A DNA stretch of 38,205 bases from Candidatus Woesearchaeota archaeon (GCA_964528765.1 CAZGVA010000002.1:1-38205); one strand, 5' to 3'; positions 10,909-25,516 are shown, counted from the first letter of the stretch. Notes: generated from the letters alone by a model not told the origin. A program made the numbers and translations.

Positions 10909-12000
10909 CTACTTTTGTTTGGATTTTACTCTTTGTCGCGCTATTTTAAGTGCAGCTTGTCTTGGAGATATATTGTTTTTCTTTGAATGTTCAAGAGTTT
11001 CTCGCGTATTTTCAGTAACTTTTTCCTCAACAATCTTCCACATTTTTTTTGCATCTCCACCAATATGTTCAACATAGCTAGAGATTACTCCACCAGCATT
11101 AGCAACAAAATCAGGTACTAATAGAACGCCTTTATTATGAAATACTTCTTCAAGATCTGGTCGCATTACAATATTACTGCCACAAACAATTAGCTTAAAT
11201 TTCATATTGCTAATATCGTGTTCTTTTATCAAATCTGGAATTGCAGCAGGTATTAAAATATCTGCCTGAACTTTTAGAATCTCATGTGATGGTTTAACTA
11301 CGCCTTTTGCAGAAGTTACTGTGCCTTTTTTTGTTTTAGTTTCAGATAGTTCTTTGAAACTCAAACCTTCTGGATTAATTATAACTCCCTTGGAATCAGA
11401 TGCAGCAACACATTTTGCTCCAACTTCAGTCATGAATTTTGTTACAAACCAACCAACATTACCAAACCCTTCAACTGCAAATGTCTTGTCTTTCAAATCC
11501 CAACCAAGGTGTTCTGCAGCAACTTTTATTGCATGGAAAACACCAAAACCAGTTGATCCAAGCTCATGTGGTAAGCCACCCATCTTTGCGGGTTTTCCCG
11601 TACAACATTTTTTATTACCATTACCTTCAATCAACCATTCCATTTCATTTTCAGCCATATTCATATCTGGCGCAGCGATGTATAATGAAGGACAAATTGG
11701 CTTAATTGCTTCACCAAAAGATTTTACAAGAGCTTTTTTCTCAGAATTTGATAGTTCTTTAGCATTAGCAATAATACCGGATTTACCGCCACCAAAGGGT
11801 ATGCCTGCAAGTGCGCATTTCCAAGTCATTGCTCTAGCAAGTTTCATAACTTCTTCAATTGAAACTGACGGAGTCATTCGTATTCCACCTTTTGCAGGGC
11901 CAAGTGCCGTGTTATCAACTACAGTAAAACCATGTAATCCTGTTTTTTTATTATGGACTTCGAGAACTTTCTCTGGTCCAAACTCATCAAAATCTGTCAT
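10909..12000 (-). CDS. Glu/Leu/Phe/Val dehydrogenase family protein (short form, 363 aa)
   Basis: GPAKGGIRM and KCALAGIPFGGGKSGI (catalytic Lys region), followed by the Rossmann motif VEGFGNVG. Confidence 0.85.
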   Translation of the reverse strand: MTDFDEFGPEKVLEVHNKKTGLHGFTVVDNTALGPAKGGIRMTPSVSIEEVMKLARAMTWKCALAGIPFGGGKSGIIANAKELSNSEKKALVKSFGEAIKPICPSLYIAAPDMNMAENEMEWLIEGNGNKKCCTGKPAKMGGLPHELGSTGFGVFHAIKVAAEHLGWDLKDKTFAVEGFGNVGWFVTKFMTEVGAKCVAASDSKGVIINPEGLSFKELSETKTKKGTVTSAKGVVKPSHEILKVQADILIPAAIPDLIKEHDISNMKFKLIVCGSNIVMRPDLEEVFHNKGVLLVPDFVANAGGVISSYVEHIGGDAKKMWKIVEEKVTENTRETLEHSKKNNISPRQAALKIARQRVKSKQK

Positions 12001-12112
12001 ATTATGAAAAATTCAAAGAACTATAAAAGCTTAGTGGGTGTAAACTATCAATTATATATAAGATGACCAAAGACCTGCTTGAGCATCTGAAAGCTGAATG
12101 TCATAAGTTTTA

Positions 12113-12979
12113 GTGTCTGTATTGAATAAATCTTTAAATTTGCTGTTGAATTTAGAAGTAATGTTAACTGTAGATGAGATTAAGAAAATACCTTTGCTTC
12201 CTACTGAAGATGGTTTCGAAACAATTGGTATTGCAAAAAGTTATGCTTTAGGTGGTATTGTTAATTTTTGTGGTTATGATGTTACGCGTTTTACTCAAGA
12301 GGAATTAGATAAGGTAAGTGACGCTCGCTTTTTTAATCCGAGCATAACGTCTTTTGAAAATAATGATGACAGAGTTCTTGTTATTTATCGAGAATTGCGT
12401 ATGAATGAAAACCATCGTAATAAATTGACGAAGATTTTGAATGGAATCACTCATTGTTATTTTTCATCAAGTGGATTTAATAATCTAACGCCAGGAAGAT
12501 CAAGAGAATTAGTTGATGATAATAATGAACGAGTTTTAGATGAAAATCAGCAACCCAAATATGTTAATCTTTGTGGACCAAATAAATCTGCATTTGATCT
12601 AGGTCAAGAAATGAGTGCGAATTTGAAATATTTTGGGAAGGGCGGTAACAAAATGAGTTATCATGGCAAAGAATCATCCTACTTAATCGTTGAACATTTA
12701 GAAAATATTGTTGGTATTTTTAATACAAATACTGAAAATACTGTAACTTTGGAAACAAGACGTAATTTAGCTAAAGAAATGATACCCATATATACTGCAC
12801 TTGCATTATCTGAAACAATAATTGGTGAAAGTACAATGAGTGTATATAAAGAAAGAACTATTGCAGGCTTGTTAAGTAATGTTGATGCTTTTATTGAATT
12901 CGATAAATCATTAACTACACCACCAATATTTGATAAATTAAAATATGTAATTGATAAAGTAAAGGATGCTGTTTGTTAG
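12113..12979 (+). CDS. Hypothetical protein (ORFan; C-terminus ends ...KDAVC)
   Basis: An 867-nt open frame in AT-rich DNA. The track start is GTG, and ATG 12161 (MLTVDEIKK) is an alternative. No recognised domain. Confidence 0.5.
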   Translation: MSVLNKSLNLLLNLEVMLTVDEIKKIPLLPTEDGFETIGIAKSYALGGIVNFCGYDVTRFTQEELDKVSDARFFNPSITSFENNDDRVLVIYRELRMNENHRNKLTKILNGITHCYFSSSGFNNLTPGRSRELVDDNNERVLDENQQPKYVNLCGPNKSAFDLGQEMSANLKYFGKGGNKMSYHGKESSYLIVEHLENIVGIFNTNTENTVTLETRRNLAKEMIPIYTALALSETIIGESTMSVYKERTIAGLLSNVDAFIEFDKSLTTPPIFDKLKYVIDKVKDAVC

Positions 12980-13110
12980 TTATTTAATTCATTTAATGTA
13001 ATCGTTTCTAATCTTTTTTCCTATTTTTTAGTATTTTTTTACGTAATTAACCTGATTTTGTAATAGATATACTTATAAATGAATATGTATAACTACTTAT
13101 AAGTAAACTT

Positions 13111-13266
13111 ATGGTAGTTAAAGTAAAAGTTCAGGAATTTGGAAAGAATAAGCAAGTAATGGTATCTATACCACGAGCTATTGCGCAGTTACTTGGATAT
13201 AAAAAAGGAAAGACAGCTAACTGGATGTTAGAAGATGGCTTTCTTAAATTGAGGTTAGATGAATAA
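13111..13266 (+). CDS. AbrB/SpoVT (MazE/VapB-like) swapped-hairpin small DNA-binding protein, 51 aa
   Basis: Not in the ORF track because it is under 60 aa. The translation is MVVKVKVQEFGKNKQVMVSIPRAIAQLLGYKKGKTANWMLEDGFLKLRLDE. The core VSIPRAIAQLLGYKKGKTANW resembles the AbrB/SpoVT consensus (vtIPkeir..lgl..Gd.v). It overlaps the next gene by 8 nt. Confidence 0.55.
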   Translation: MVVKVKVQEFGKNKQVMVSIPRAIAQLLGYKKGKTANWMLEDGFLKLRLDE

Positions 13267-13864
13267 AATGAGAATACAAATGCGTGTAAGAACATCAGAA
13301 TACGCTCCATTAATGGATAAATTTATTCATGATAATGATAGAAAACTATATGAAACAAATCCGATAGATTGGCCAGAACCCGAAGCAATACATTTATGTT
13401 TAAATGATACACCAAAGCTTGAAGCATTTCTAAATGGAACTGAGTCTAATGTTGAACTTGGTTTTTTAGGCACATTAAATTCGTTCTCGCGCCCAAATAA
13501 ACGTGAGAATTATGAACATATAACTCGTGAACCGGGAAAAGATGTGAATTATTTTGTTGATATATTTTTTGAGATGAAAGGAATAGATACTAATGTGGAC
13601 CCTCGTCGATTAATTCCAAAGTTACCTTATTTTGTTGAATCTGGTTTTGTTGGTTTAGGTCATACACACAGAACAGGTAGTAGAATTGATTTTTCAGAAA
13701 CAGACAAAGAATTTCTGTCAGGATCATTTACGTATCGACCACACATATTATTTGCTCAGAACGAAGAGGGAAGAATTGTAGCAAACATGTACTTGCCGGG
13801 AAAAGGAACGTATCAAATTAGTCCTGAAAATATATTGTTAAAATCATTTGCAGAGGTTAGATGA
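13259..13864 (+). CDS. MPN/JAMM (JAB)-like metalloprotein, putative
   Basis: GLGHTHRTGSRIDFSETD resembles the JAMM motif HxHx7Sx2D, but with 8 residues between the second His and the Ser. A possible upstream Glu lies in PEPEAIHLCL. The call is weak and rests on this motif only. Confidence 0.4.
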   Translation: MNKMRIQMRVRTSEYAPLMDKFIHDNDRKLYETNPIDWPEPEAIHLCLNDTPKLEAFLNGTESNVELGFLGTLNSFSRPNKRENYEHITREPGKDVNYFVDIFFEMKGIDTNVDPRRLIPKLPYFVESGFVGLGHTHRTGSRIDFSETDKEFLSGSFTYRPHILFAQNEEGRIVANMYLPGKGTYQISPENILLKSFAEVR

Positions 13865-13867
13865 ATA

Positions 13868-14536
13868 ATGGTAAATGATAATCGAACCAACATTACTGAA
13901 GATCGTTTGAAGAATTTAGAAGGAATAACGCTCGAGAAAACAAAAGATAATATGCGAATGAAAGTTGATGATAAGTGGGTTTTTCCAGTTAGAAATAAGT
14001 ATATGTTTGCGCCAATTGAAGAAGATCCAATATATTTAAATATTCCAGCTCCAGCGGGAAAAGGAATACGGGTATACTTAAATGGAGAAAATTACGATCA
14101 GCTCAATGAAGAGTTAAGCAACAAATTAACAAATATTGTAGCTACAGTAAATGATGCACATGAATATGATTTTGGAGCATGTGTAAGAAAGCAAATTAAA
14201 CCTTATGAACAACAACCAGCACGGTCAAGAACAACATTAAATAAAGATATAGCAACAATGCTGGAATATGCTCCAGATATAAGTAATCCTGACGCGCCAA
14301 AAATAATTTGTACAGGTTCAACAGACTTAATTGCAGATGAATTAGAACGCGCAAATATACCTAAGTTATATTGGAAAGTAGGTAGCGCAATAAAGAAAAA
14401 TGGAATTCATCATAGTGTAGTTTTTGTATTTGATAACAAAGGCAAATGGGTTTTATTAAATGGTAAAACTCCAGCAAATAATTATACTATAATTCCAAAA
14501 TCCAGTTTAGATAATGACGTGGAGCGTGTTTGCTAA
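13868..14536 (+). CDS. Papain-fold / transglutaminase-like Cys-peptidase-like protein, putative (C-terminus ends ...ERVC)
   Basis: IICTGSTDLIADELERANIPKLYWKVG...IHHSVVFVFDNKGKWVLLNG matches the transglutaminase-core layout (C..f..l...lRa.GIPaR.v.G ... HaWvev....gW..lD). Candidate triad is Cys148, His181 or His182, and Asn198 or Asp189. Confidence 0.35.
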   Translation: MVNDNRTNITEDRLKNLEGITLEKTKDNMRMKVDDKWVFPVRNKYMFAPIEEDPIYLNIPAPAGKGIRVYLNGENYDQLNEELSNKLTNIVATVNDAHEYDFGACVRKQIKPYEQQPARSRTTLNKDIATMLEYAPDISNPDAPKIICTGSTDLIADELERANIPKLYWKVGSAIKKNGIHHSVVFVFDNKGKWVLLNGKTPANNYTIIPKSSLDNDVERVC

Positions 14537-15219
14537 TGGCAAATATTGATATATATGATGGAACTGCAACTCCGCGAGCAGGAAAACAACTTATGTATGC
14601 TCTGCAAGATTTAGCAAGGATTAGACAAAAGGAATTTCATATTTTTCCAGACCCTAGAAAATCAAATGATGAAAATACACGAAGATATAATATTGTTAAT
14701 GGCTTTGCTAATCTTAATTATTTTGAAAATAGAAATGGTAGAAATCAAGTTAATGTAGCACCCATGCCAAAACAAATGGCTGATGCTAAGGGTTTAGAAG
14801 AAATTGTAGATGTTGATAGTTTAAAAATTATTATTTTAGCTGATGATATTTTCTGCGGAGAAGAATCTAATTGGTGTATTGGTGTTGCAAATGGAGTTGA
14901 TTTGTATGATGAGCAAGGTAATTTATATGATGATAGAGACTTTTTAACTGTAACAACATATGACGCAAAGACTGATGTTCAGCTAAAAGATCGATTCTTA
15001 CATGAGCTTGGACATATTTTTGGTGCTGCTCCAAAAGGACGTTCAAATACTGAAGAATTTTTAGGACCTCACTGTATTAATGATTTGTGCGTAATGCAAC
15101 AAAGAGATACAGTGGATGGGCAAGAAGAATTAACTAGACAAAGACAAATATATCGTGCACCAACTTATTGTAATCAATGTGTTGCGGATTTAAAATCTTC
15201 TGCTAAATTTGAGAGATAA
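14536..15219 (+). CDS. amzA: Archaemetzincin-like zinc metallopeptidase (M54-like) with expanded signature
   Basis: HELGHIFG-(16 aa)-CINDLCVM-(24 aa)-CNQC follows the archaemetzincin signature HEXXHXXGX3CX4CXMX17CXXC, with two spacers lengthened. ATG 14536 overlaps the previous stop as TAATG. Confidence 0.75.
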   Translation: MANIDIYDGTATPRAGKQLMYALQDLARIRQKEFHIFPDPRKSNDENTRRYNIVNGFANLNYFENRNGRNQVNVAPMPKQMADAKGLEEIVDVDSLKIIILADDIFCGEESNWCIGVANGVDLYDEQGNLYDDRDFLTVTTYDAKTDVQLKDRFLHELGHIFGAAPKGRSNTEEFLGPHCINDLCVMQQRDTVDGQEELTRQRQIYRAPTYCNQCVADLKSSAKFER

Positions 15220-15250
15220 TTGAATACAAAACGGGAATTAATTAGTCAAG

Positions 15251-16165
15251 TTATTTATTTTCTTGAATATAATTATAAGCAGCTTGAGCTGCATGAGCTC
15301 CCTGAGCTACACCTGTGATTGCTTGCTTAAAATCATAATCTGTGCAATCTCCTGCTCCAAAAGCACCTGAAACATTTGTTTGAGAATGTTTGTTAACAAT
15401 TAATTCGTGTTTCTTATTTAGTTTGCAGCCGATTTTTTCAGCTAATTCGGTTTTTGGAATATATCCAATCTCAACAAAAATTCCATCAAGCTTTAATTCT
15501 TCTGAACTTTTGTATTCTCTGTCAAGAATAACTTGATTTACAAATTGTTTTCCTTGAATTTCTTTAAGATTTGCTTTGTAAATGATTTCAATTTTTTTGT
15601 TTGCTAAAACATTTTTGAAATTTATTGGTTCTGCGCGTAGTTTTTCTCCACGATAAATAATATAAATTTTCTTTGCAAATTGTGCTAGAAGAATTGCTTC
15701 TTTAGCTGCAGAATCTGAGCCACCAATAACTGCAACAGTTTTACCTGCGAAAAGTGGTCCGTCACATGTGCCACAGTAACTTACACCTTTACCTCTGTAC
15801 TCTTTTTCACCTTTAACATCTAGTTGTCGATGAAATGAGCCTGTTGCAAAAAGAACCGTTTTTCCTTCGTATTCGTTTTTTTCAGTTTTAACTTTAAACG
15901 AACTTCTTAGTTTTTTAATATCCTTAGCAGTTTCCTGTTTTATTGTAACTTTTTTGTAAGATTTAGCATGATCAATTATTTTTTGAGTTAACTCTAATGC
16001 TCCAATTTTTTTAAATCCAATATAATTCTCAATATCGTGAGTTTGTTGTAAAAGGCCACCTAGATTTTCAGCAAGAACAAGAACATTTAACTCATATCTA
16101 GCTGCATAAACCGCGGCACCTAAGCCAGCTACACCGCCACCAATAATAACTAAATCATATACCAT
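15251..16165 (-). CDS. trxB: Thioredoxin-disulfide reductase
   Basis: FAD motif VIIGGGVAGLGAA, the redox-active CGTCDG, an NADPH site VAVIGGSDSAAKEA, and a C-terminal GAGDC. Confidence 0.9.
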   Translation of the reverse strand: MVYDLVIIGGGVAGLGAAVYAARYELNVLVLAENLGGLLQQTHDIENYIGFKKIGALELTQKIIDHAKSYKKVTIKQETAKDIKKLRSSFKVKTEKNEYEGKTVLFATGSFHRQLDVKGEKEYRGKGVSYCGTCDGPLFAGKTVAVIGGSDSAAKEAILLAQFAKKIYIIYRGEKLRAEPINFKNVLANKKIEIIYKANLKEIQGKQFVNQVILDREYKSSEELKLDGIFVEIGYIPKTELAEKIGCKLNKKHELIVNKHSQTNVSGAFGAGDCTDYDFKQAITGVAQGAHAAQAAYNYIQENK

Positions 16166-16216
16166 AGAATAGAAAATAAGTGAAATATAAAAGCTTAATG
16201 GGCGAAATTTACTAAA

Positions 16217-16492
16217 TTATTCTCTAATTTCATATACAGGCAGTTCGTAATGAGTCATACCTGCTGAACCAAAATATGTAGCATTTTCTGCTTCACTTAA
16301 AATTCGCGGAGAAGAATTCACTATCTCTCGGTTGGGATTGACTTGGTCTTCAAGCTTACTAAATGCATTGATAGCTTCCATTGAATCTCTTCGTAGAGTT
16401 TGTCTAGATATATTGCCGCGTTTATTACGTTCATTAAGAAGCGCATCAGCCATTTCCTTTTTGCGTTTTTCTTTTCGTTTTCTTGTACTCAT
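16217..16492 (-). CDS. Hypothetical small protein with a basic N-terminus
   Basis: An open frame starting MSTRKRKEKRKKEM. The track's longer start (16534) would end 22 nt from the tRNA. No motif recognised. Confidence 0.35.
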   Translation of the reverse strand: MSTRKRKEKRKKEMADALLNERNKRGNISRQTLRRDSMEAINAFSKLEDQVNPNREIVNSSPRILSEAENATYFGSAGMTHYELPVYEIRE

Positions 16493-16556
16493 ATAACTAA
16501 ACGATAAAAACATTTTTAAAATTATCGTAACCACAGTAGTATTTTAAGAATATAAG

Positions 16557-16726
16557 CGAGCCCACAAGGATTCGAACCCCGATCAACCGGTATCTTCCCC
16601 CAAATTTTAGTTTCTGGGGTTGGAAGACCTCTTTTTAAAGAGGGATTCCGCCGAAGCCGGCCGCACTATACAGCGCTAAACATATTATTTGGGTTTATTT
16701 TAGCGTATCCATTATGCTATGGGCCC
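16557..16726 (-). tRNA. Intron-containing tRNA, best parsed as tRNA-Arg (UCG) with two introns
   Basis: Minus-strand reading, part 1: GGGCCCA-TA-GCAT-AATGGAT-ACGC, then about 40 nt, then G-GCCGG-CTTCGG. Part 2: about 59 nt, then A-CCGGT-TGAT-CGGGG-TTCGAAT-CCTTG-TGGGCTC-G. The acceptor (7 bp, one G-U), T arm, a D arm with GG, and an anticodon stem GCCGG/CCGGT are all recoverable. This is the only GC-rich island in the region. Exact splice sites are not resolved. Confidence 0.6.
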
Positions 16727-16756
16727 ACATATAGAAATGATTTTAAGGTTTCTTAA

Positions 16757-17731
16757 ATGTTACCTTTCATGTATGATGTTATAATTATCGGTGCAGGTCC
16801 CGCAGGTTGTCGAACTGCCGAATTGTTAGCGAAAGAGAAAAAAGTTCTTGTGATAGAAGAACACTCGGAAATTGGTAAACCGGTTCAATGCACGGGTCTA
16901 ATTTCAAGTCATCTCTTGAAAATCCATCATGATTTGCCAGATTCTGTTGTTCAAAATAAAATTAAAACAGCTAGATTCTTCACACCAAATAAAACAAATT
17001 TTACACTTTCTGTCAAAAAACCCGCGTTAGTTGTTAATCGAGCTAAGCTTGATTCTTGGTTAGAAAATAAAGCAAGAAAATTGGGTGTCAAATTTAAAAT
17101 TAACACAAAATTTGAAAAATTTACGCAGTTGAAAAATAAAATTATGGTTAAGACAAACAAAGGAGATTTTGAATGTAGATATTTAGTTGGAGCAGATGGA
17201 GCACTTTCCAAAGTTCGAGAACAGATGAAGATGGATTTTGAATACAAGCAACAAATTTTTTCCCAGAAAACAAAATCAGGAAAATATAAAGAAGAAGCAG
17301 AACTTCATTTTGGTGGACAATATTTTAATTGGATTGTTCCATTTTCTGAAACACAAGCAAGAATCGGCGGACCATCGAAAGAGCAAAAGTTCAAAGGTGA
17401 ATCTGGAGGAGTAATTAGATATGGATTGCTTCCAACTGCACAAAAAGAAAATATCTTCCTTGTTGGAGATGCAGCACTTCAAGTTAAACCTTTTTCTGGA
17501 GGCGGAGTTGTCTATGGTCAAATTGGAGCACAGTGTCTAGCAGATGCAATCATATGTAAGAAAGACTATAATCATCTTTGGCAAGCAAAATTAAAATGGC
17601 CAATACAGAAAGGTCTTTTGTTTTGCAGATTTTACTCTCTTCCAAATTGTCTAAAGAATTTGTGTTTTGAAATTGTATATAGAATGCGTTTAGAAAAAAT
17701 ACTAGAAAAATTAGATATGGATTTTTACTAA
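16757..17731 (+). CDS. Geranylgeranyl reductase family FAD-dependent oxidoreductase
   Basis: YDVIIIGAGPAGCRTAELLA (FAD GxGxxG), VGADGALSKVR, and LVGDAA...KPFSGGG. ATG 16769 is an alternative start. Confidence 0.75.
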   Translation: MLPFMYDVIIIGAGPAGCRTAELLAKEKKVLVIEEHSEIGKPVQCTGLISSHLLKIHHDLPDSVVQNKIKTARFFTPNKTNFTLSVKKPALVVNRAKLDSWLENKARKLGVKFKINTKFEKFTQLKNKIMVKTNKGDFECRYLVGADGALSKVREQMKMDFEYKQQIFSQKTKSGKYKEEAELHFGGQYFNWIVPFSETQARIGGPSKEQKFKGESGGVIRYGLLPTAQKENIFLVGDAALQVKPFSGGGVVYGQIGAQCLADAIICKKDYNHLWQAKLKWPIQKGLLFCRFYSLPNCLKNLCFEIVYRMRLEKILEKLDMDFY

Positions 17732-22637: not shown

Positions 22638-24329
22638 ATGACAATAAAACAACCAAACGCAGATAATACTATTGAACTAGAACAGCTAGCAAAACCTTTT
22701 GATGTATCTATGGAGTCCGGTAAATATGATACACTTATTAGTACAAACTTAGAATTTCTTCGAGGAACTGTTGAAAGAATCGAAAAAACACATGCTAGTG
22801 AAATTTCACCAGTTGATTCTAATCTTATGGCGTATTATGAAGGTGTTCGTGATAGCGATCGTAGCACACTAAAACCGTTTGAAATACAAACTATTGACGG
22901 TATTGAATCACAAATTCGGGGAGCTAAAACTTTTAACTTATTGGGTGAAGTAAAACGTCAAATTAGTACTGGAGATATTATATCAAGTTATTCAAGTTTG
23001 ATTGAATTAGCTAAAATTTTACCAAACGTAGAATCTGTTGAAGGAAATCAAACATATTCACCTGAAAAAATTGTAATTACTGTCGCAGACGTAGTTTCAC
23101 AAATTCCACCATCTAGACCTGGAAAACCAACACTTGTTAATATTCTTGTTAAGGACCCAAGTTGCTTAGCACAAAATGTTGAATTAAGTAATGAATTTGT
23201 AAGAGAGTTACTTGATAATTATGCAGTAGGTGCTTCTAGATCACGTAAAATCAATGGCGTAAATAATGGATTCAGTCAAGGTGTAATCTCTAAATATAGA
23301 TATGCAATTAAAAAATTACGTAAAGAATTACCTATATCTGACATTGATGAACAATCAATTTTAGCTGGATTACAAAGTAATTATACAATATTTGAATCAG
23401 AACTTAAACAAATTAACTTATCTCTAGAAGAAAAATTATCTTCAGGACAAAATATATCTAAAAGTTTGAGAAAATTACTTGGTGAAGTTGGTAGAGAAAA
23501 TCCATTAGAACAATCTCAAGAAATAATTGAATATGCAATTGGACATATGAATAGTGTACATGATTTAATTACACAAGCATCACGTATAGCGAAAGTGGAT
23601 AGTCCTGTAAGTGCAATTGATGAAATTGTTATACCTCAAAAACCCGTTGTTCAAAAAGAAAAAATTTCATATGGTGGGCCGTTAGTTTCGTTTGAAAGTC
23701 CAGTAGCTGAATATGATTGGAAAAAAGTCCAAACAAATCGAGATGAAGATAATCCTCTAGGATATTATGATATCGATGTTCCAATATCTGTATCTGTTCC
23801 CGTTAAAGAAGATGAAATTAGACGATTAGAATCAATTAATCAACGAAATAAAAAACAAGCTATGGGAGAAGTTAAAGGAATTCGTGCAAGACAGCAAAAT
23901 GATGCAGAATTTACTGTTGAATATTTAACTAGCGAATTAAATCAAATATCTAATCAATTATTTGGTGTTGATATTAATGAAGATTTAACTAAACATATTT
24001 TTGAAAGTGGAATTGAGAGAATGTCACCAAAAACTAGATCCTTGGAAGTAAAAATTAGCTCATTAAGATCGTATGTTAATGTCACTGAAATAAATAATAT
24101 GTTGAAAAAACAAGTTGCGGGAGAAACTGAAAGTATTTATTTTAATGCATTTGTTAAAGATATGGATGAGCGAAATCAAACATCTAGACTTGAAGCTGCA
24201 ATGTTGCTTGCTATCTCAGGAAGTAAAATTTTAGCAGATGGTGGAGAACTTACATCAGATAATGATGAAGTATGTTTAACTGTAAATGAAGCTATTGCTG
24301 ATTTGTTTAATATGAATGGAGCTGAATAA
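22638..24329 (+). CDS. Hypothetical protein (563 aa ORFan)
   Basis: A 1.7-kb open frame in AT-rich DNA. No TM segment, signal peptide or catalytic motif recognised. It appears largely helical and charged. Confidence 0.6.
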   Translation: MTIKQPNADNTIELEQLAKPFDVSMESGKYDTLISTNLEFLRGTVERIEKTHASEISPVDSNLMAYYEGVRDSDRSTLKPFEIQTIDGIESQIRGAKTFNLLGEVKRQISTGDIISSYSSLIELAKILPNVESVEGNQTYSPEKIVITVADVVSQIPPSRPGKPTLVNILVKDPSCLAQNVELSNEFVRELLDNYAVGASRSRKINGVNNGFSQGVISKYRYAIKKLRKELPISDIDEQSILAGLQSNYTIFESELKQINLSLEEKLSSGQNISKSLRKLLGEVGRENPLEQSQEIIEYAIGHMNSVHDLITQASRIAKVDSPVSAIDEIVIPQKPVVQKEKISYGGPLVSFESPVAEYDWKKVQTNRDEDNPLGYYDIDVPISVSVPVKEDEIRRLESINQRNKKQAMGEVKGIRARQQNDAEFTVEYLTSELNQISNQLFGVDINEDLTKHIFESGIERMSPKTRSLEVKISSLRSYVNVTEINNMLKKQVAGETESIYFNAFVKDMDERNQTSRLEAAMLLAISGSKILADGGELTSDNDEVCLTVNEAIADLFNMNGAE

Positions 24330-24331
24330 AT

Positions 24332-25516
24332 ATGAGTAATGGAAACAATTCTTATATTGCACACCATGTTAATCTTTGGAATAAAGGTGGAAAAGTTTTA
24401 AGTGGATTAACTTTTAAAAACGGTGGTCGTACATCTAAAAAATCAAAAATGAATCCTTGGCAGTATGTGTTAACTTTAAATCAATCTGGTTGGGATGTTG
24501 ATTTTTCTGGAGTTAGACGTGAAGATATTGCTAGAAAAAAACATGTTCCAGATTTACTTAAATTTTATATGTTAGAACATGGAATTATTTTCAAAGAAAT
24601 TGTAGCTCGTTTTGAGGGAGCAGTTAAAACTTCTGGAAGTGTTCGTCCAGTAAGCGAAATGATTGAATCCATTGGTGGATATGGTTCTTTTGGCCATAAA
24701 AAACAATTGTTTAACTCGCCAATTGGACGTAAGAGAGAGCATCGTAGTTTTTTGGAATATATTGGGGCCAATGAGTTATTTGATACGGTTAAAACAAAAC
24801 CTGAATTTACTAAAAGACATTTTATTGAAACAATTATTTTTCCGTTAAGAGAAAGTTGTAATTTTATGGGTTTAATTGACAGACCAACCGATAAAGATTC
24901 AAGAATTTACGTAAGACACACTACTGATGAAGGAGAGATTGTAACATTAAAAACTGATGCAAATGGTACTGATATATATGAAATTAATTTACCTGCTGCG
25001 CGATTAGATGACATGCGTAAAAGAAACACAAACACCTATGGAAAGTTTGCAAAGAGATATGGTAATATACCCGTTTTACCGGATAACCGTACAGGATTAC
25101 ATTTATCTAAAGTAACAACTAGTTGGGAAGATACAGTAAATTTCTTAAGAAAATCTGGTTTAAATCAGCCAATTAATTATTGGCAAGATTGCAATTTGCC
25201 AATTGCTCCCACAGATGTACTAAAATCTAAAACTCGTGCAGAAGAAGGTTATATTTCACTTGTATTTAGAACTCCCGTTGAAAACGAAACAGCAGTTATT
25301 AAAATAAATCGAGATACACTTGGTATGGAGTATCTCTTAGATGATAGCGTTATGAGTTCAGAACAATTTAGTTTACAGTTAATGAGTAATTTTTTTGCTA
25401 ATGTTATTGAACCATCTAAATTGTTCAAAACAACTTCAGACGCAGTTCAAGAAAGAGTCAGAAAGATGTCAACGTTAGAATCAAGATTACCTGCGTATAT
25501 GGGTAACGGTAAATAA
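24332..25516 (+). CDS. Hypothetical protein (394 aa ORFan)
   Basis: The open frame starts 2 nt after the upstream stop. It has a basic N-terminal patch (GGRTSKKSKMNPW). No motif recognised. Confidence 0.6.
   Translation: MSNGNNSYIAHHVNLWNKGGKVLSGLTFKNGGRTSKKSKMNPWQYVLTLNQSGWDVDFSGVRREDIARKKHVPDLLKFYMLEHGIIFKEIVARFEGAVKTSGSVRPVSEMIESIGGYGSFGHKKQLFNSPIGRKREHRSFLEYIGANELFDTVKTKPEFTKRHFIETIIFPLRESCNFMGLIDRPTDKDSRIYVRHTTDEGEIVTLKTDANGTDIYEINLPAARLDDMRKRNTNTYGKFAKRYGNIPVLPDNRTGLHLSKVTTSWEDTVNFLRKSGLNQPINYWQDCNLPIAPTDVLKSKTRAEEGYISLVFRTPVENETAVIKINRDTLGMEYLLDDSVMSSEQFSLQLMSNFFANVIEPSKLFKTTSDAVQERVRKMSTLESRLPAYMGNGK

Follow-up and report, generated by a model that had tools for sequence, protein, structure and literature searches.

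Gene organization and upstream region

Four closely spaced genes, termed g1 to g4, were analyzed in a stretch of 38,205 nucleotides from a Candidatus Woesearchaeota archaeon (GCA_964528765.1 CAZGVA010000002.1:1-38205), which is referred to as the window. They code for a small basic protein with an AbrB-like motif (g1), an MPN+/JAMM-like protein (g2), a soluble protein with a layout of cysteine and histidine residues (g3) and a divergent archaemetzincin-type metzincin (g4; Table 1). The operon is best read as a recent, strain-specific mosaic of two smaller modules and not as a conserved multi-protease system.

The first-pass annotation had proposed one closely coupled operon, and the tight junctions together with the Shine-Dalgarno (SD)-like motifs before g2, g3, and g4 agree with this. 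The 3-nt gap between g2 and g3 (TGA-ata-ATG) and the 1-nt overlap between g3 and g4 (TAATG) were found as described there, and the ATG of g4 is backed by the N-terminal alignment with its homologs. The 8-nt overlap described for g1 and g2 did not stand: it requires the ATG at 13259, and the ATG at 13268 gives a 1-nt gap instead. The latter is most likely the start of g2, judged from the alignment, because the closest homolog P0011 aligns from the methionine at this position and because the distance of the sequence GAGG, which begins 16–17 nt before this ATG, then resembles that of g3 and g4 (14–15 nt before their starts). No SD-like motif was seen before g1, unlike g2, g3, and g4.

Based on the third-position bias of g1 and on the homologs of g2, g3, and g4 with their conserved motifs, the four are judged to be genuine genes and no chance open reading frames (ORFs). 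The motifs E..HTH..S..D in g2, C148, HH181/182 and D189/N198 in g3 as well as HELGH...HCx4CxM...CxxC in g4 are all present. The short g1 ORF is called by public gene callers. Hydrophobic segments were not found in the four products, all of which are soluble, and the GC content is even across the cassette genes.

Table 1. Features of the g1–g4 locus, with positions counted from the first nucleotide of the window.
Feature	Position	Strand	Description
T-rich tract	13013-13040	+	T6, T6, T7; downstream of the 288-residue ORF g0; sequence and T-run scan
Promoter region (predicted)	13063-13112	+	TATA-like box and imperfect inverted repeat
g1	13111-13266	+	51 amino acids, basic
Repeat copy 1	13251-13266	+	genuine 3′ end of g1 (…RLDE and stop codon), includes the SD-like GAGG for g2
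g2	13268-13864	+	198 amino acids, MPN+/JAMM-like; alternative starts 13259, 13280
g2 E63	13454-13456	+	active-site candidate, alignment
g2 H132/H134	13661-13669	+	active-site candidates, alignment
g2 S143		+	active-site candidate, alignment
g2 D146	13703-13705	+	active-site candidate, alignment
Repeat copy 2	13853-13868	+	last three codons and stop codon of g2 (other frame), SD-like motif, A of the g3 ATG
g3	13868-14536	+	222 amino acids, soluble, Cys/His layout
g3 C148	14309-14311	+	kept in the single homolog
g3 H182	14411-14413	+	kept in the single homolog
g4	14536-15219	+	227 amino acids, divergent archaemetzincin-type metzincin
g4 HELGH	15001-15015	+	motif site
g4 H179-C180	15070-15075	+	motif site
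g4 C185		+	motif site
g4 M187		+	motif site
g4 C212/C215	15169-15180	+	motif site

Upstream of g1, an ORF of 288 amino acids (g0, 12113-12979) is separated from the cassette by a spacer of 131 nt with a cluster of three T6-T7 runs (13014-13040) and, closer to g1, a TATA-like box. Oligo-T termination is established in archaea, and the T-rich tract is likely an archaeal terminator parting g0 from the cassette. The TATA-like sequence TTATAAAT (13073-13080) is located about 31–38 nt ahead of the g1 ATG and is spanned by an imperfect inverted repeat with arms at 13063-13078 and 13097-13112. Going by general knowledge of archaeal signals, this arrangement fits a leaderless-type g1 transcript that would start after termination behind g0, and the inverted repeat could be an operator. 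Rfam families gave no match in the region 11900-16900.

It had been suggested that the cassette is a maturation pathway for g0, in favor of which nothing can be named but that g0 lies next to it on the same strand. With the terminator-like tract and the TATA-like box in between, and with no counterpart of g0 beside g1 in the related loci L003 and L017, a processing of g0 by the cassette is highly improbable. The ORFs upstream of g1 in these two loci (304 amino acids in L017, 278 in L003) showed no significant similarity to g0 (z = 0.35 and 3.9; pairwise E = 0.078 and 0.013), and g0 has no relatives in the GTDB representative genomes.

The encoded protein families

By its profile matches, the g4 product is a divergent zinc peptidase of the archaemetzincin type, with a predicted activity, and no canonical member of this group. 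It matches only 7 proteins in a collection of 5.8 billion. Invariant in six members of this family are D104, N112, G116, the HELGH motif, G163, R169, T172, G177, H179-C180, C185, M187, Q189, C212, C215, and D218. The family profile finds the archaemetzincins 2x7m (E = 1.6e-4) and 3zvs (E = 4.8e-3) in the PDB, and the alignment to AmzA includes the upstream motif D-x-F...N-W/F-x-F-G. PF07998 matches five of the six family members with a best E-value of 1.5e-6, g4 itself reaching 16.2 bits vs. a cut-off of 24.4, and the NCBIfam model archmetzin matches g4 with E = 1.4e-3 and 18.6 bits vs. a cut-off of 145. An archaemetzincin-like assignment, as made in the first-pass annotation, is supported by these matches, and since g4 falls below the curated cut-offs, it is termed divergent archaemetzincin-type and not canonical. 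In scans of g0 to g4 against Pfam, PHROGs, PADLOC, and NCBIfam, these weak M54 matches were the only family-relevant ones, and single-protein searches of PDB sequences returned nothing relevant. Among the viral contigs of IMG/VR, g4 has no relatives.

Genes of this divergent subfamily, with HExxHxxG, a loop of about 15 residues and HC…CxM…CxxC, were also observed in metagenome-assembled genomes (MAGs) of Candidatus Saccharibacteria and in one MAG that bears the label Rhodospirillaceae. By the Saccharibacteria cases, the subfamily is common to bacteria of the Candidate Phyla Radiation and to DPANN archaea. Its genes at L005:5356-6231, L006:5581-6234, L004:183-941, and L012:814-1530 always occur without the cassette partners. 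Furthermore, a g4-like gene edges a run of about 18 ORFs on the same strand (L001:2972-10868, identical to L002), which are mostly small and nearly all without a Pfam match. The run includes genes with class II tRNA-synthetase-like, eIF-1A-like and SUKH-3 domains and may represent a virus or another unusual element.

The product of g2 is most likely an MPN+/JAMM-like zinc (iso)peptidase, a reading which is backed by both the modeled fold and the motif. A word-indexed search with g2 returned only g2 itself, and an exhaustive HMMER search revealed 6 genuine relatives among 1.84 billion representatives. A seventh match, the 1177-residue repeat protein P0013, was discarded as a low-complexity or repeat artifact, and no relatives were found in the GTDB representative genomes. 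Throughout the seven family sequences E63 (in ELGF), G-x-G-H132-x-H134(-P-x-G), D146 and a C-terminal Y-x-P-x-x-G are invariant. The serine position (S143), within the spacing HxH-x8-S-x2-D, varies between S and G. The C-terminus of g2 is several residues shorter than those of the closest homologs P0011 and P0012.

The AlphaFold2 model of g2, calculated on the alignment of these seven sequences, reached a pLDDT of 80.6 and a pTM of 0.79. A Foldseek search of the PDB with this model gave 39 matches at E<1e-3, almost all of which are JAMM/MPN enzymes or complexes containing them, led by BRCC36 (8e-6) and JAMM1 of P. furiosus (3e-5) and followed by CSN5, Rpn11, BubCD, and Cap3. The top 34 matches have probabilities of 0.97–1.00 at modest TM-scores (0.30–0.41, query-normalised). 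Six matches in BFVD were significant: three carry names of the MPN/JAB/proteasome type, another is called "Ubiquitin-like protein", and the names of the remaining two are uninformative. This fold and the conserved E, HxH, and D support the JAMM-like call made for g2 from the sequence. The Pfam JAB families gave no real match in the g2 family (best Prok-JAB, E = 0.17 in one of seven members), and the family profile had no match among the PDB sequences.

The distant relatives of g2 are located in unrelated contexts, and no match to g1, g3, or g4 was found in the searchable loci. One of them, P0017 (L021:51-3210), shares 17 nt with a radical-SAM/SPASM gene, which is followed by a B12-binding radical-SAM gene; from the gene content, this setting looks like peptide maturation. 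Another one, P0014, has 342 amino acids with a long N-terminal extension (L018:186-4374) and was found in JGI 3300025669, a metagenome that also contains the window strain. It is preceded by two ORFs without a Pfam match (483 and 262 amino acids) and adjoins a convergently oriented metallo-beta-lactamase-fold gene matching the Anti-Pycsar Apyc1 family.

For g3, a single homolog was identified (P0010, 51% identity), which is located directly upstream of a g4 homolog on an 80-kb contig. C148, H182, D189, and N198 are kept in this protein, and as the family has only two sequences, such conserved residues carry little weight. The layout C148-x34-H182-x16-N198 presumably resembles the Cys-His-Asp/Asn triad of transglutaminases and papain, and by this order of residues g3 might be a thiol hydrolase. 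Neither the full-length protein nor its C-terminal part matched Pfam, NCBIfam, PHROG, PADLOC, or the PDB, and relatives were absent from the GTDB representative genomes and the viral contigs of IMG/VR. The AlphaFold2 model, built with the single homolog, is unusable (pLDDT 39.9) and its fold search gave noise; in this low-confidence model, a helix begins four residues after C148, and H182 is part of a strand.

Two further readings of g3 were rejected. An E2-like reading (H98...C105) was dropped by eye, because the spacing does not match the HPN-x-Cys pattern. In addition, a likeness of residues 135-222 (14270-14536) to HIV-1 protease, seen in a full-length alignment with E~0.04, was discarded as non-significant. 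In this alignment, IICTGSTD stands against the retropepsin LLDTGADD, with CTGS against DTGA, and LLNGKTPAN against VLVGPTPVN, which is probably due to chance.

The g1 protein has a pI of 9.9 and ends in RLDE, without a C-terminal Gly-Gly. Its homologs show 78% identity (L003) and 71% identity (L017, a Woesearchaeota MAG). The differences between the homologs fall on third codon positions in 73 cases vs. 30 and 16 elsewhere, a pattern which points to purifying selection on g1. Among the profile matches, PF04014 (MazE/AbrB) was found in one of three homologs (E = 0.027), and the sole PDB match is the AbrB/MazE/SpoVT-family entry 7d2n (E = 0.99), in which IPKALAQQVG aligns with the central stretch …VSIPRAIAQLLGYKKGK… of g1. 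PHROG 13486, which has no assigned function, matches with E = 7.7e-4. These matches weakly support the AbrB-like assignment of the first-pass annotation; with its IPxxIAxxLG motif, g1 is plausibly an AbrB/SpoVT/MazE-type swapped-hairpin DNA-binding protein. No relatives were detected in viral contigs of IMG/VR, and tblastn gave no match in phage records.

Gene combinations in relatives and the 16-nt repeat

A fixed coupling of three peptidase-like genes had been assumed for the locus. The order g1-g2-g3-g4 was found only on contigs which are 100% identical to the window and originate from the same strain in four other samples, and the relatives carry other combinations. The neighborhoods of the archaemetzincin homologs do not repeat the cassette either: the distant g4 relatives (28–38% identity) have no g1, g2, or g3 alongside, their neighbors being unrelated genes. 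As the combination is not conserved, it does not constitute a "system", and the proposal that three proteases are kept together as a conserved unit is not supported.

In L003 and three further assemblies, a Tiki/ChaN-like ORF of 278 amino acids (PF04187, E = 4e-6) is followed by g1 and g4, the last two joined by TAATG, and g2 and g3 are missing. The g4 ortholog is split into two ORFs of 53 and 153 amino acids in all of these, namely L003 (5729-6402), L025, L026, and a 27.8-kb JGI contig. The split is caused by a +2 TA insertion in a run of TA repeats (…AGATATATAATATAG… vs. …AGATATAATATTG… in the window). Since it is present in four independent assemblies, it is not an assembly error but reflects either a true pseudogene or a site prone to slippage. 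Thus g4 is dispensable, as it is frameshifted in one lineage while g1 is intact. The 80-kb contig, which like the 27.8-kb and 20-kb contigs belongs to JGI sample 3300072015, carries a GNAT-like ORF of 152 amino acids, a 54-residue ORF, and the homologs of g3 and g4, all overlapping. On a 20-kb contig, a 227-residue ORF, a 51-residue ORF, and the tandem g2 paralogs P0012 and P0011 are located directly upstream of the GGR ortholog. Finally, in the abundant Woesearchaeota of the L017 type (23+ contigs), Bud32, HAD, and TrxR genes are followed by a 304-residue ORF with HELTH overlapping g1, a tRNA with a probable intron, and GGR; no g2, g3, or g4 was found at the g1 locus of this lineage.

From the combinations in the surveyed relatives it follows that g1 is the constant element and its partners are variable. 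Among g0 to g4, it alone adjoins all of the related modules with readable sequence. By its shared neighborhood of Bud32, TrxR, and GGR in the relatives, g1 appears to be vertically inherited, and its evolutionary rate is like that of the housekeeping neighbors TrxR and GGR.

Several observations were made around g1 in these relatives. Its upstream neighbors, the HELTH ORF (L017:2814-3728) and the Tiki/ChaN-like ORF (L003:4741-5577), look metallohydrolase-like and both overlap g1. On the minus strand of L003 (3885-4643), a conserved divergent ORF of 252 amino acids contains HEAGH (SprT-like, E = 0.13) and likewise resembles a metallohydrolase. The tRNA directly downstream of the g1 homolog in L017 (3871-3991, minus strand) is matched by Rfam RF00005 with 52.9 bits and missed by ARAGORN; from its length of 121 nt, it probably holds an intron. 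No tRNA is present at the corresponding position of the window.

A perfect direct repeat of 16 nt, GAGGTTAGATGAATAA, occurs twice at the locus with a spacing of 602 and nowhere else in the window (Table 1). The g2/g3 junction GAGGTTAGATGAATAATG matches the g1/g4 junction GAGGTTAGACGAATAATG of L003, i.e., repeat copy 2 and the following TG. A deletion of 13267-13868 would recreate a junction of the form g1-TAATG-g3, and the gap of 1 nt between g1 and g2 is the same as that between the 51-residue ORF and P0012 on the 20-kb contig. The simplest account of these sequences is that copy 2 would be what is left of the 3′ end of a second g1 and thus the scar of a module fusion. A module of the g1-g2 type at the GGR-linked locus would have fused with a g1-g3-g4 module, as found near a TruB/ribosomal-protein cluster in relatives, and of the second g1 the last 16 nt alone would have survived. 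Alternatively, the repeat may stem from an insertion which duplicated 16 bp of its target. On the fusion account, the scar offers a base-pair view of how a reduced DPANN genome builds an operon from modules sharing a small head gene.

The surroundings are chromosomal, since the window carries genes for S3Ae, FttA/aCPSF1, a proteasome subunit, and ProRS. Genes for S15, Bud32, GDH, TrxR, and a GGR-like protein are present as well. With their counterparts in a Candidatus Woesearchaeota MAG, TrxR shares 78% and GGR 65% identity, by which the host is assigned to a small Woesearchaeota-like (DPANN) archaeon; in this MAG, g1 and the ORF upstream of it are set among the same neighbor genes. No mobility genes were found near the cassette. 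Further downstream (22638-25516), two large ORFs of 563 and 394 amino acids lie 2 nt apart, neither of which is matched by Pfam at E<=1e-4.

Functional readings and related systems

With moderate confidence, the locus is interpreted as an accessory mosaic operon, in which g1 would act as a DNA-binding (auto)regulator and g2, g3, and g4 would be co-expressed, independent cytoplasmic peptidases or amidases. Dimers of g1 would bind the inverted repeat over the TATA-like box and thereby set the expression of the whole transcript. The three enzymes would act separately in the trimming of peptides or proteins, with no obligate three-step pathway.

Some points weigh against this interpretation. The inverted repeat is imperfect (81%) and set in AT-rich DNA, so that it may be due to chance, and no AbrB-family match of g1 reaches significance, which leaves its DNA binding as a prediction. 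The 51-residue ORF on the 20-kb contig and the 54-residue ORF on the 80-kb contig are regarded as g1 homologs by size, position, and synteny only. Moreover, g1 recurs beside metallopeptidase-like genes, with HELTH and Tiki/ChaN-like ORFs upstream and JAMM and archaemetzincin-like genes downstream, and a functional tie beyond shared regulation could exist.

In another reading, g1 would be a protein partner of the adjacent peptidases, i.e., an inhibitor in trans, a chaperone or a substrate, and not a DNA-binding regulator. The direct coupling of g1 to g4 in L003 by TAATG fits this, as does the fact that g1 is always found inside operons with hydrolase-like genes. This role is considered quite unlikely, since the neighbors are catalytically unrelated to each other and one inhibitor would hardly act on all of them. 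An intact g1 is also found in the lineage with the frameshifted g4 and at loci lacking a gene downstream of it; the basic pI and the AbrB-like motif of g1 speak against such a role as well.

A toxin-antitoxin (TA)-like or conflict module, with g1 as antitoxin or immunity partner and the variable neighbors (JAMM, archaemetzincin-like, HExxH, Tiki-like, GNAT-like) as exchangeable effectors, would account for one constant small AbrB-like gene whose partners vary and overlap it; type II TA loci of the mix-and-match kind and polymorphic toxin loci would be the models for such an exchange. The patchy distribution, the pseudogene among the partners (g4), the scar pointing to recombinational shuffling, and the weak match to the "MazE_antitoxin" family PF04014 are in line with it. 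Nevertheless, it is rated as rather unlikely: g1 keeps its chromosomal neighborhood and evolves at a housekeeping-like rate, the composition is uniform, mobility genes are missing nearby and no PADLOC match was obtained. The g4 relatives examined lie among housekeeping genes without g1, g2, and g3, a setting not expected of a toxin, and by comparison with general knowledge of antitoxins, g1 corresponds to the core domain of about 45 residues without a C-terminal toxin-binding tail. An obligate pairing of type II was not observed, as distant g4 relatives occur without g1, and g1 without g2 or g4.

In a related but broader interpretation, the g1-type gene would anchor a recombination-driven family of polymorphic loci in Woesearchaeota, in which enzymes are swapped on both sides, HExxH, Tiki-like, GNAT-like, JAMM, and archaemetzincin-like proteins serving as effectors in conflict, TA-like functions or host interaction. 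To this, too, we assign a low probability; if it were true, archaemetzincins would gain a first defined biological context.

A dedicated pathway for the processing and deconjugation of a protein tag or peptide, with the JAMM protein, the thiol peptidase and the archaemetzincin acting on one substrate, is regarded as unlikely. The MPN+ fold and the residues of g2 are those of deubiquitinase- or desampylase-type enzymes, the three genes are translationally coupled, and P0017, as a remote member of the g2 family, is set in a context like that of peptide maturation, overlapping a radical-SAM/SPASM gene, all of which would suit such a pathway. Against it, the combination is confined to a single strain and was recently assembled, each enzyme family is found without the other two in relatives, and the peptidase fold of g3 is only a candidate. 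Furthermore, domains of the ubiquitin-like (Ubl), ThiS/MoaD, ThiF/E1, or UBC/E2 type were found neither in the cassette nor in 35 larger ORFs of the window, the smaller ORFs being only partly scanned, and g1 lacks the Gly-Gly end.

The accessory mosaic operon thus remains the preferred interpretation. New here are the g4 variant of the archaemetzincin type and the very small g2 family within the MPN+/JAMM fold, the latter defining a very rare JAMM-like family with an active site that looks complete by sequence. A literature search for archaemetzincins in connection with operons, and for AbrB with JAMM in archaea, found nothing relevant, and we know of no described system which combines AbrB-like, JAMM-like and archaemetzincin-like genes.

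The g2 protein shares the predicted fold, the invariant glutamate, HxH and aspartate with MPN+/JAMM enzymes such as JAMM1 of P. furiosus, which is of the SAMP desampylase type, Rpn11/CSN5/BRCC36, and the deubiquitinase-like bacterial enzymes Cap3 and BubCD/Bil. It differs from them by a spacing of x8 instead of x7 before the serine, which is itself not invariant, by about 80 residues between the glutamate and HxH, by the missing Pfam JAB-family match and by its rarity (about 7 representatives). From the SAMP-JAMM1, Bil/Bub and CBASS Cap2-Cap3 systems it is set apart, as their Ubl and E1/E2 partners were not found beside g2 in the scanned ORFs. The similarity of g3 to transglutaminase-like or papain-like thiol peptidases consists in the order of residues only, with no profile or structural match.

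With its 51 residues, g1 is about as long as the domain of AbrB/SpoVT/MazE proteins alone, and it shares the basic charge and the central stretch aligned to 7d2n. AbrB-type antitoxins (VapB/MazE) typically bind their toxin through a C-terminal tail, and g1 differs from them by lacking this extension. A functional analogy is given by the ImmR-ImmA and Xre-COG2856/IrrE pairs of mobile elements, which consist of a repressor and a zinc metalloprotease; there, too, the gene of a small DNA-binding protein is located beside that of an HExxH zinc peptidase. By this analogy, the peptidase could control g1 or vice versa. The pairs differ from the present locus in that a helix-turn-helix protein is combined with M78 there and an AbrB-like with an M54-like protein here, that g1 persists without g4 and that a mobile-element context is missing here.

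The archaemetzincins (MEROPS M54) include AmzA of Methanopyrus kandleri (2X7M), AmzA of Archaeoglobus fulgidus (3ZVS) and AMZ-tk of Thermococcus kodakarensis. With this group, g4 shares the HExxHxxG helix, the histidine directly before the first cysteine, the Cx4CxM Met-turn and the distal CxxC. The canonical motif is HEXXHXXGXXHCX4CXMX17CXXC (PMC3427221, PMC4681839). In comparison, g4 has 15 residues instead of 2 between the glycine and the third histidine, a 13-residue insertion with the invariant R169, T172, and G177, and 24 residues instead of 17 ahead of CxxC. It further differs by its scores below the curated cut-offs and by the tiny size of its subfamily. Finally, unlike the archaemetzincins compared, g4 follows g1 or a g1-sized gene in each of three close lineages, in some cases immediately and in others separated from it by g3 (here also g2). 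This adjacency of a divergent subfamily to a small AbrB-like gene provides a modest lead on the role of archaemetzincins and raises the question of whether g1 is a regulator, a partner or a substrate of g4.

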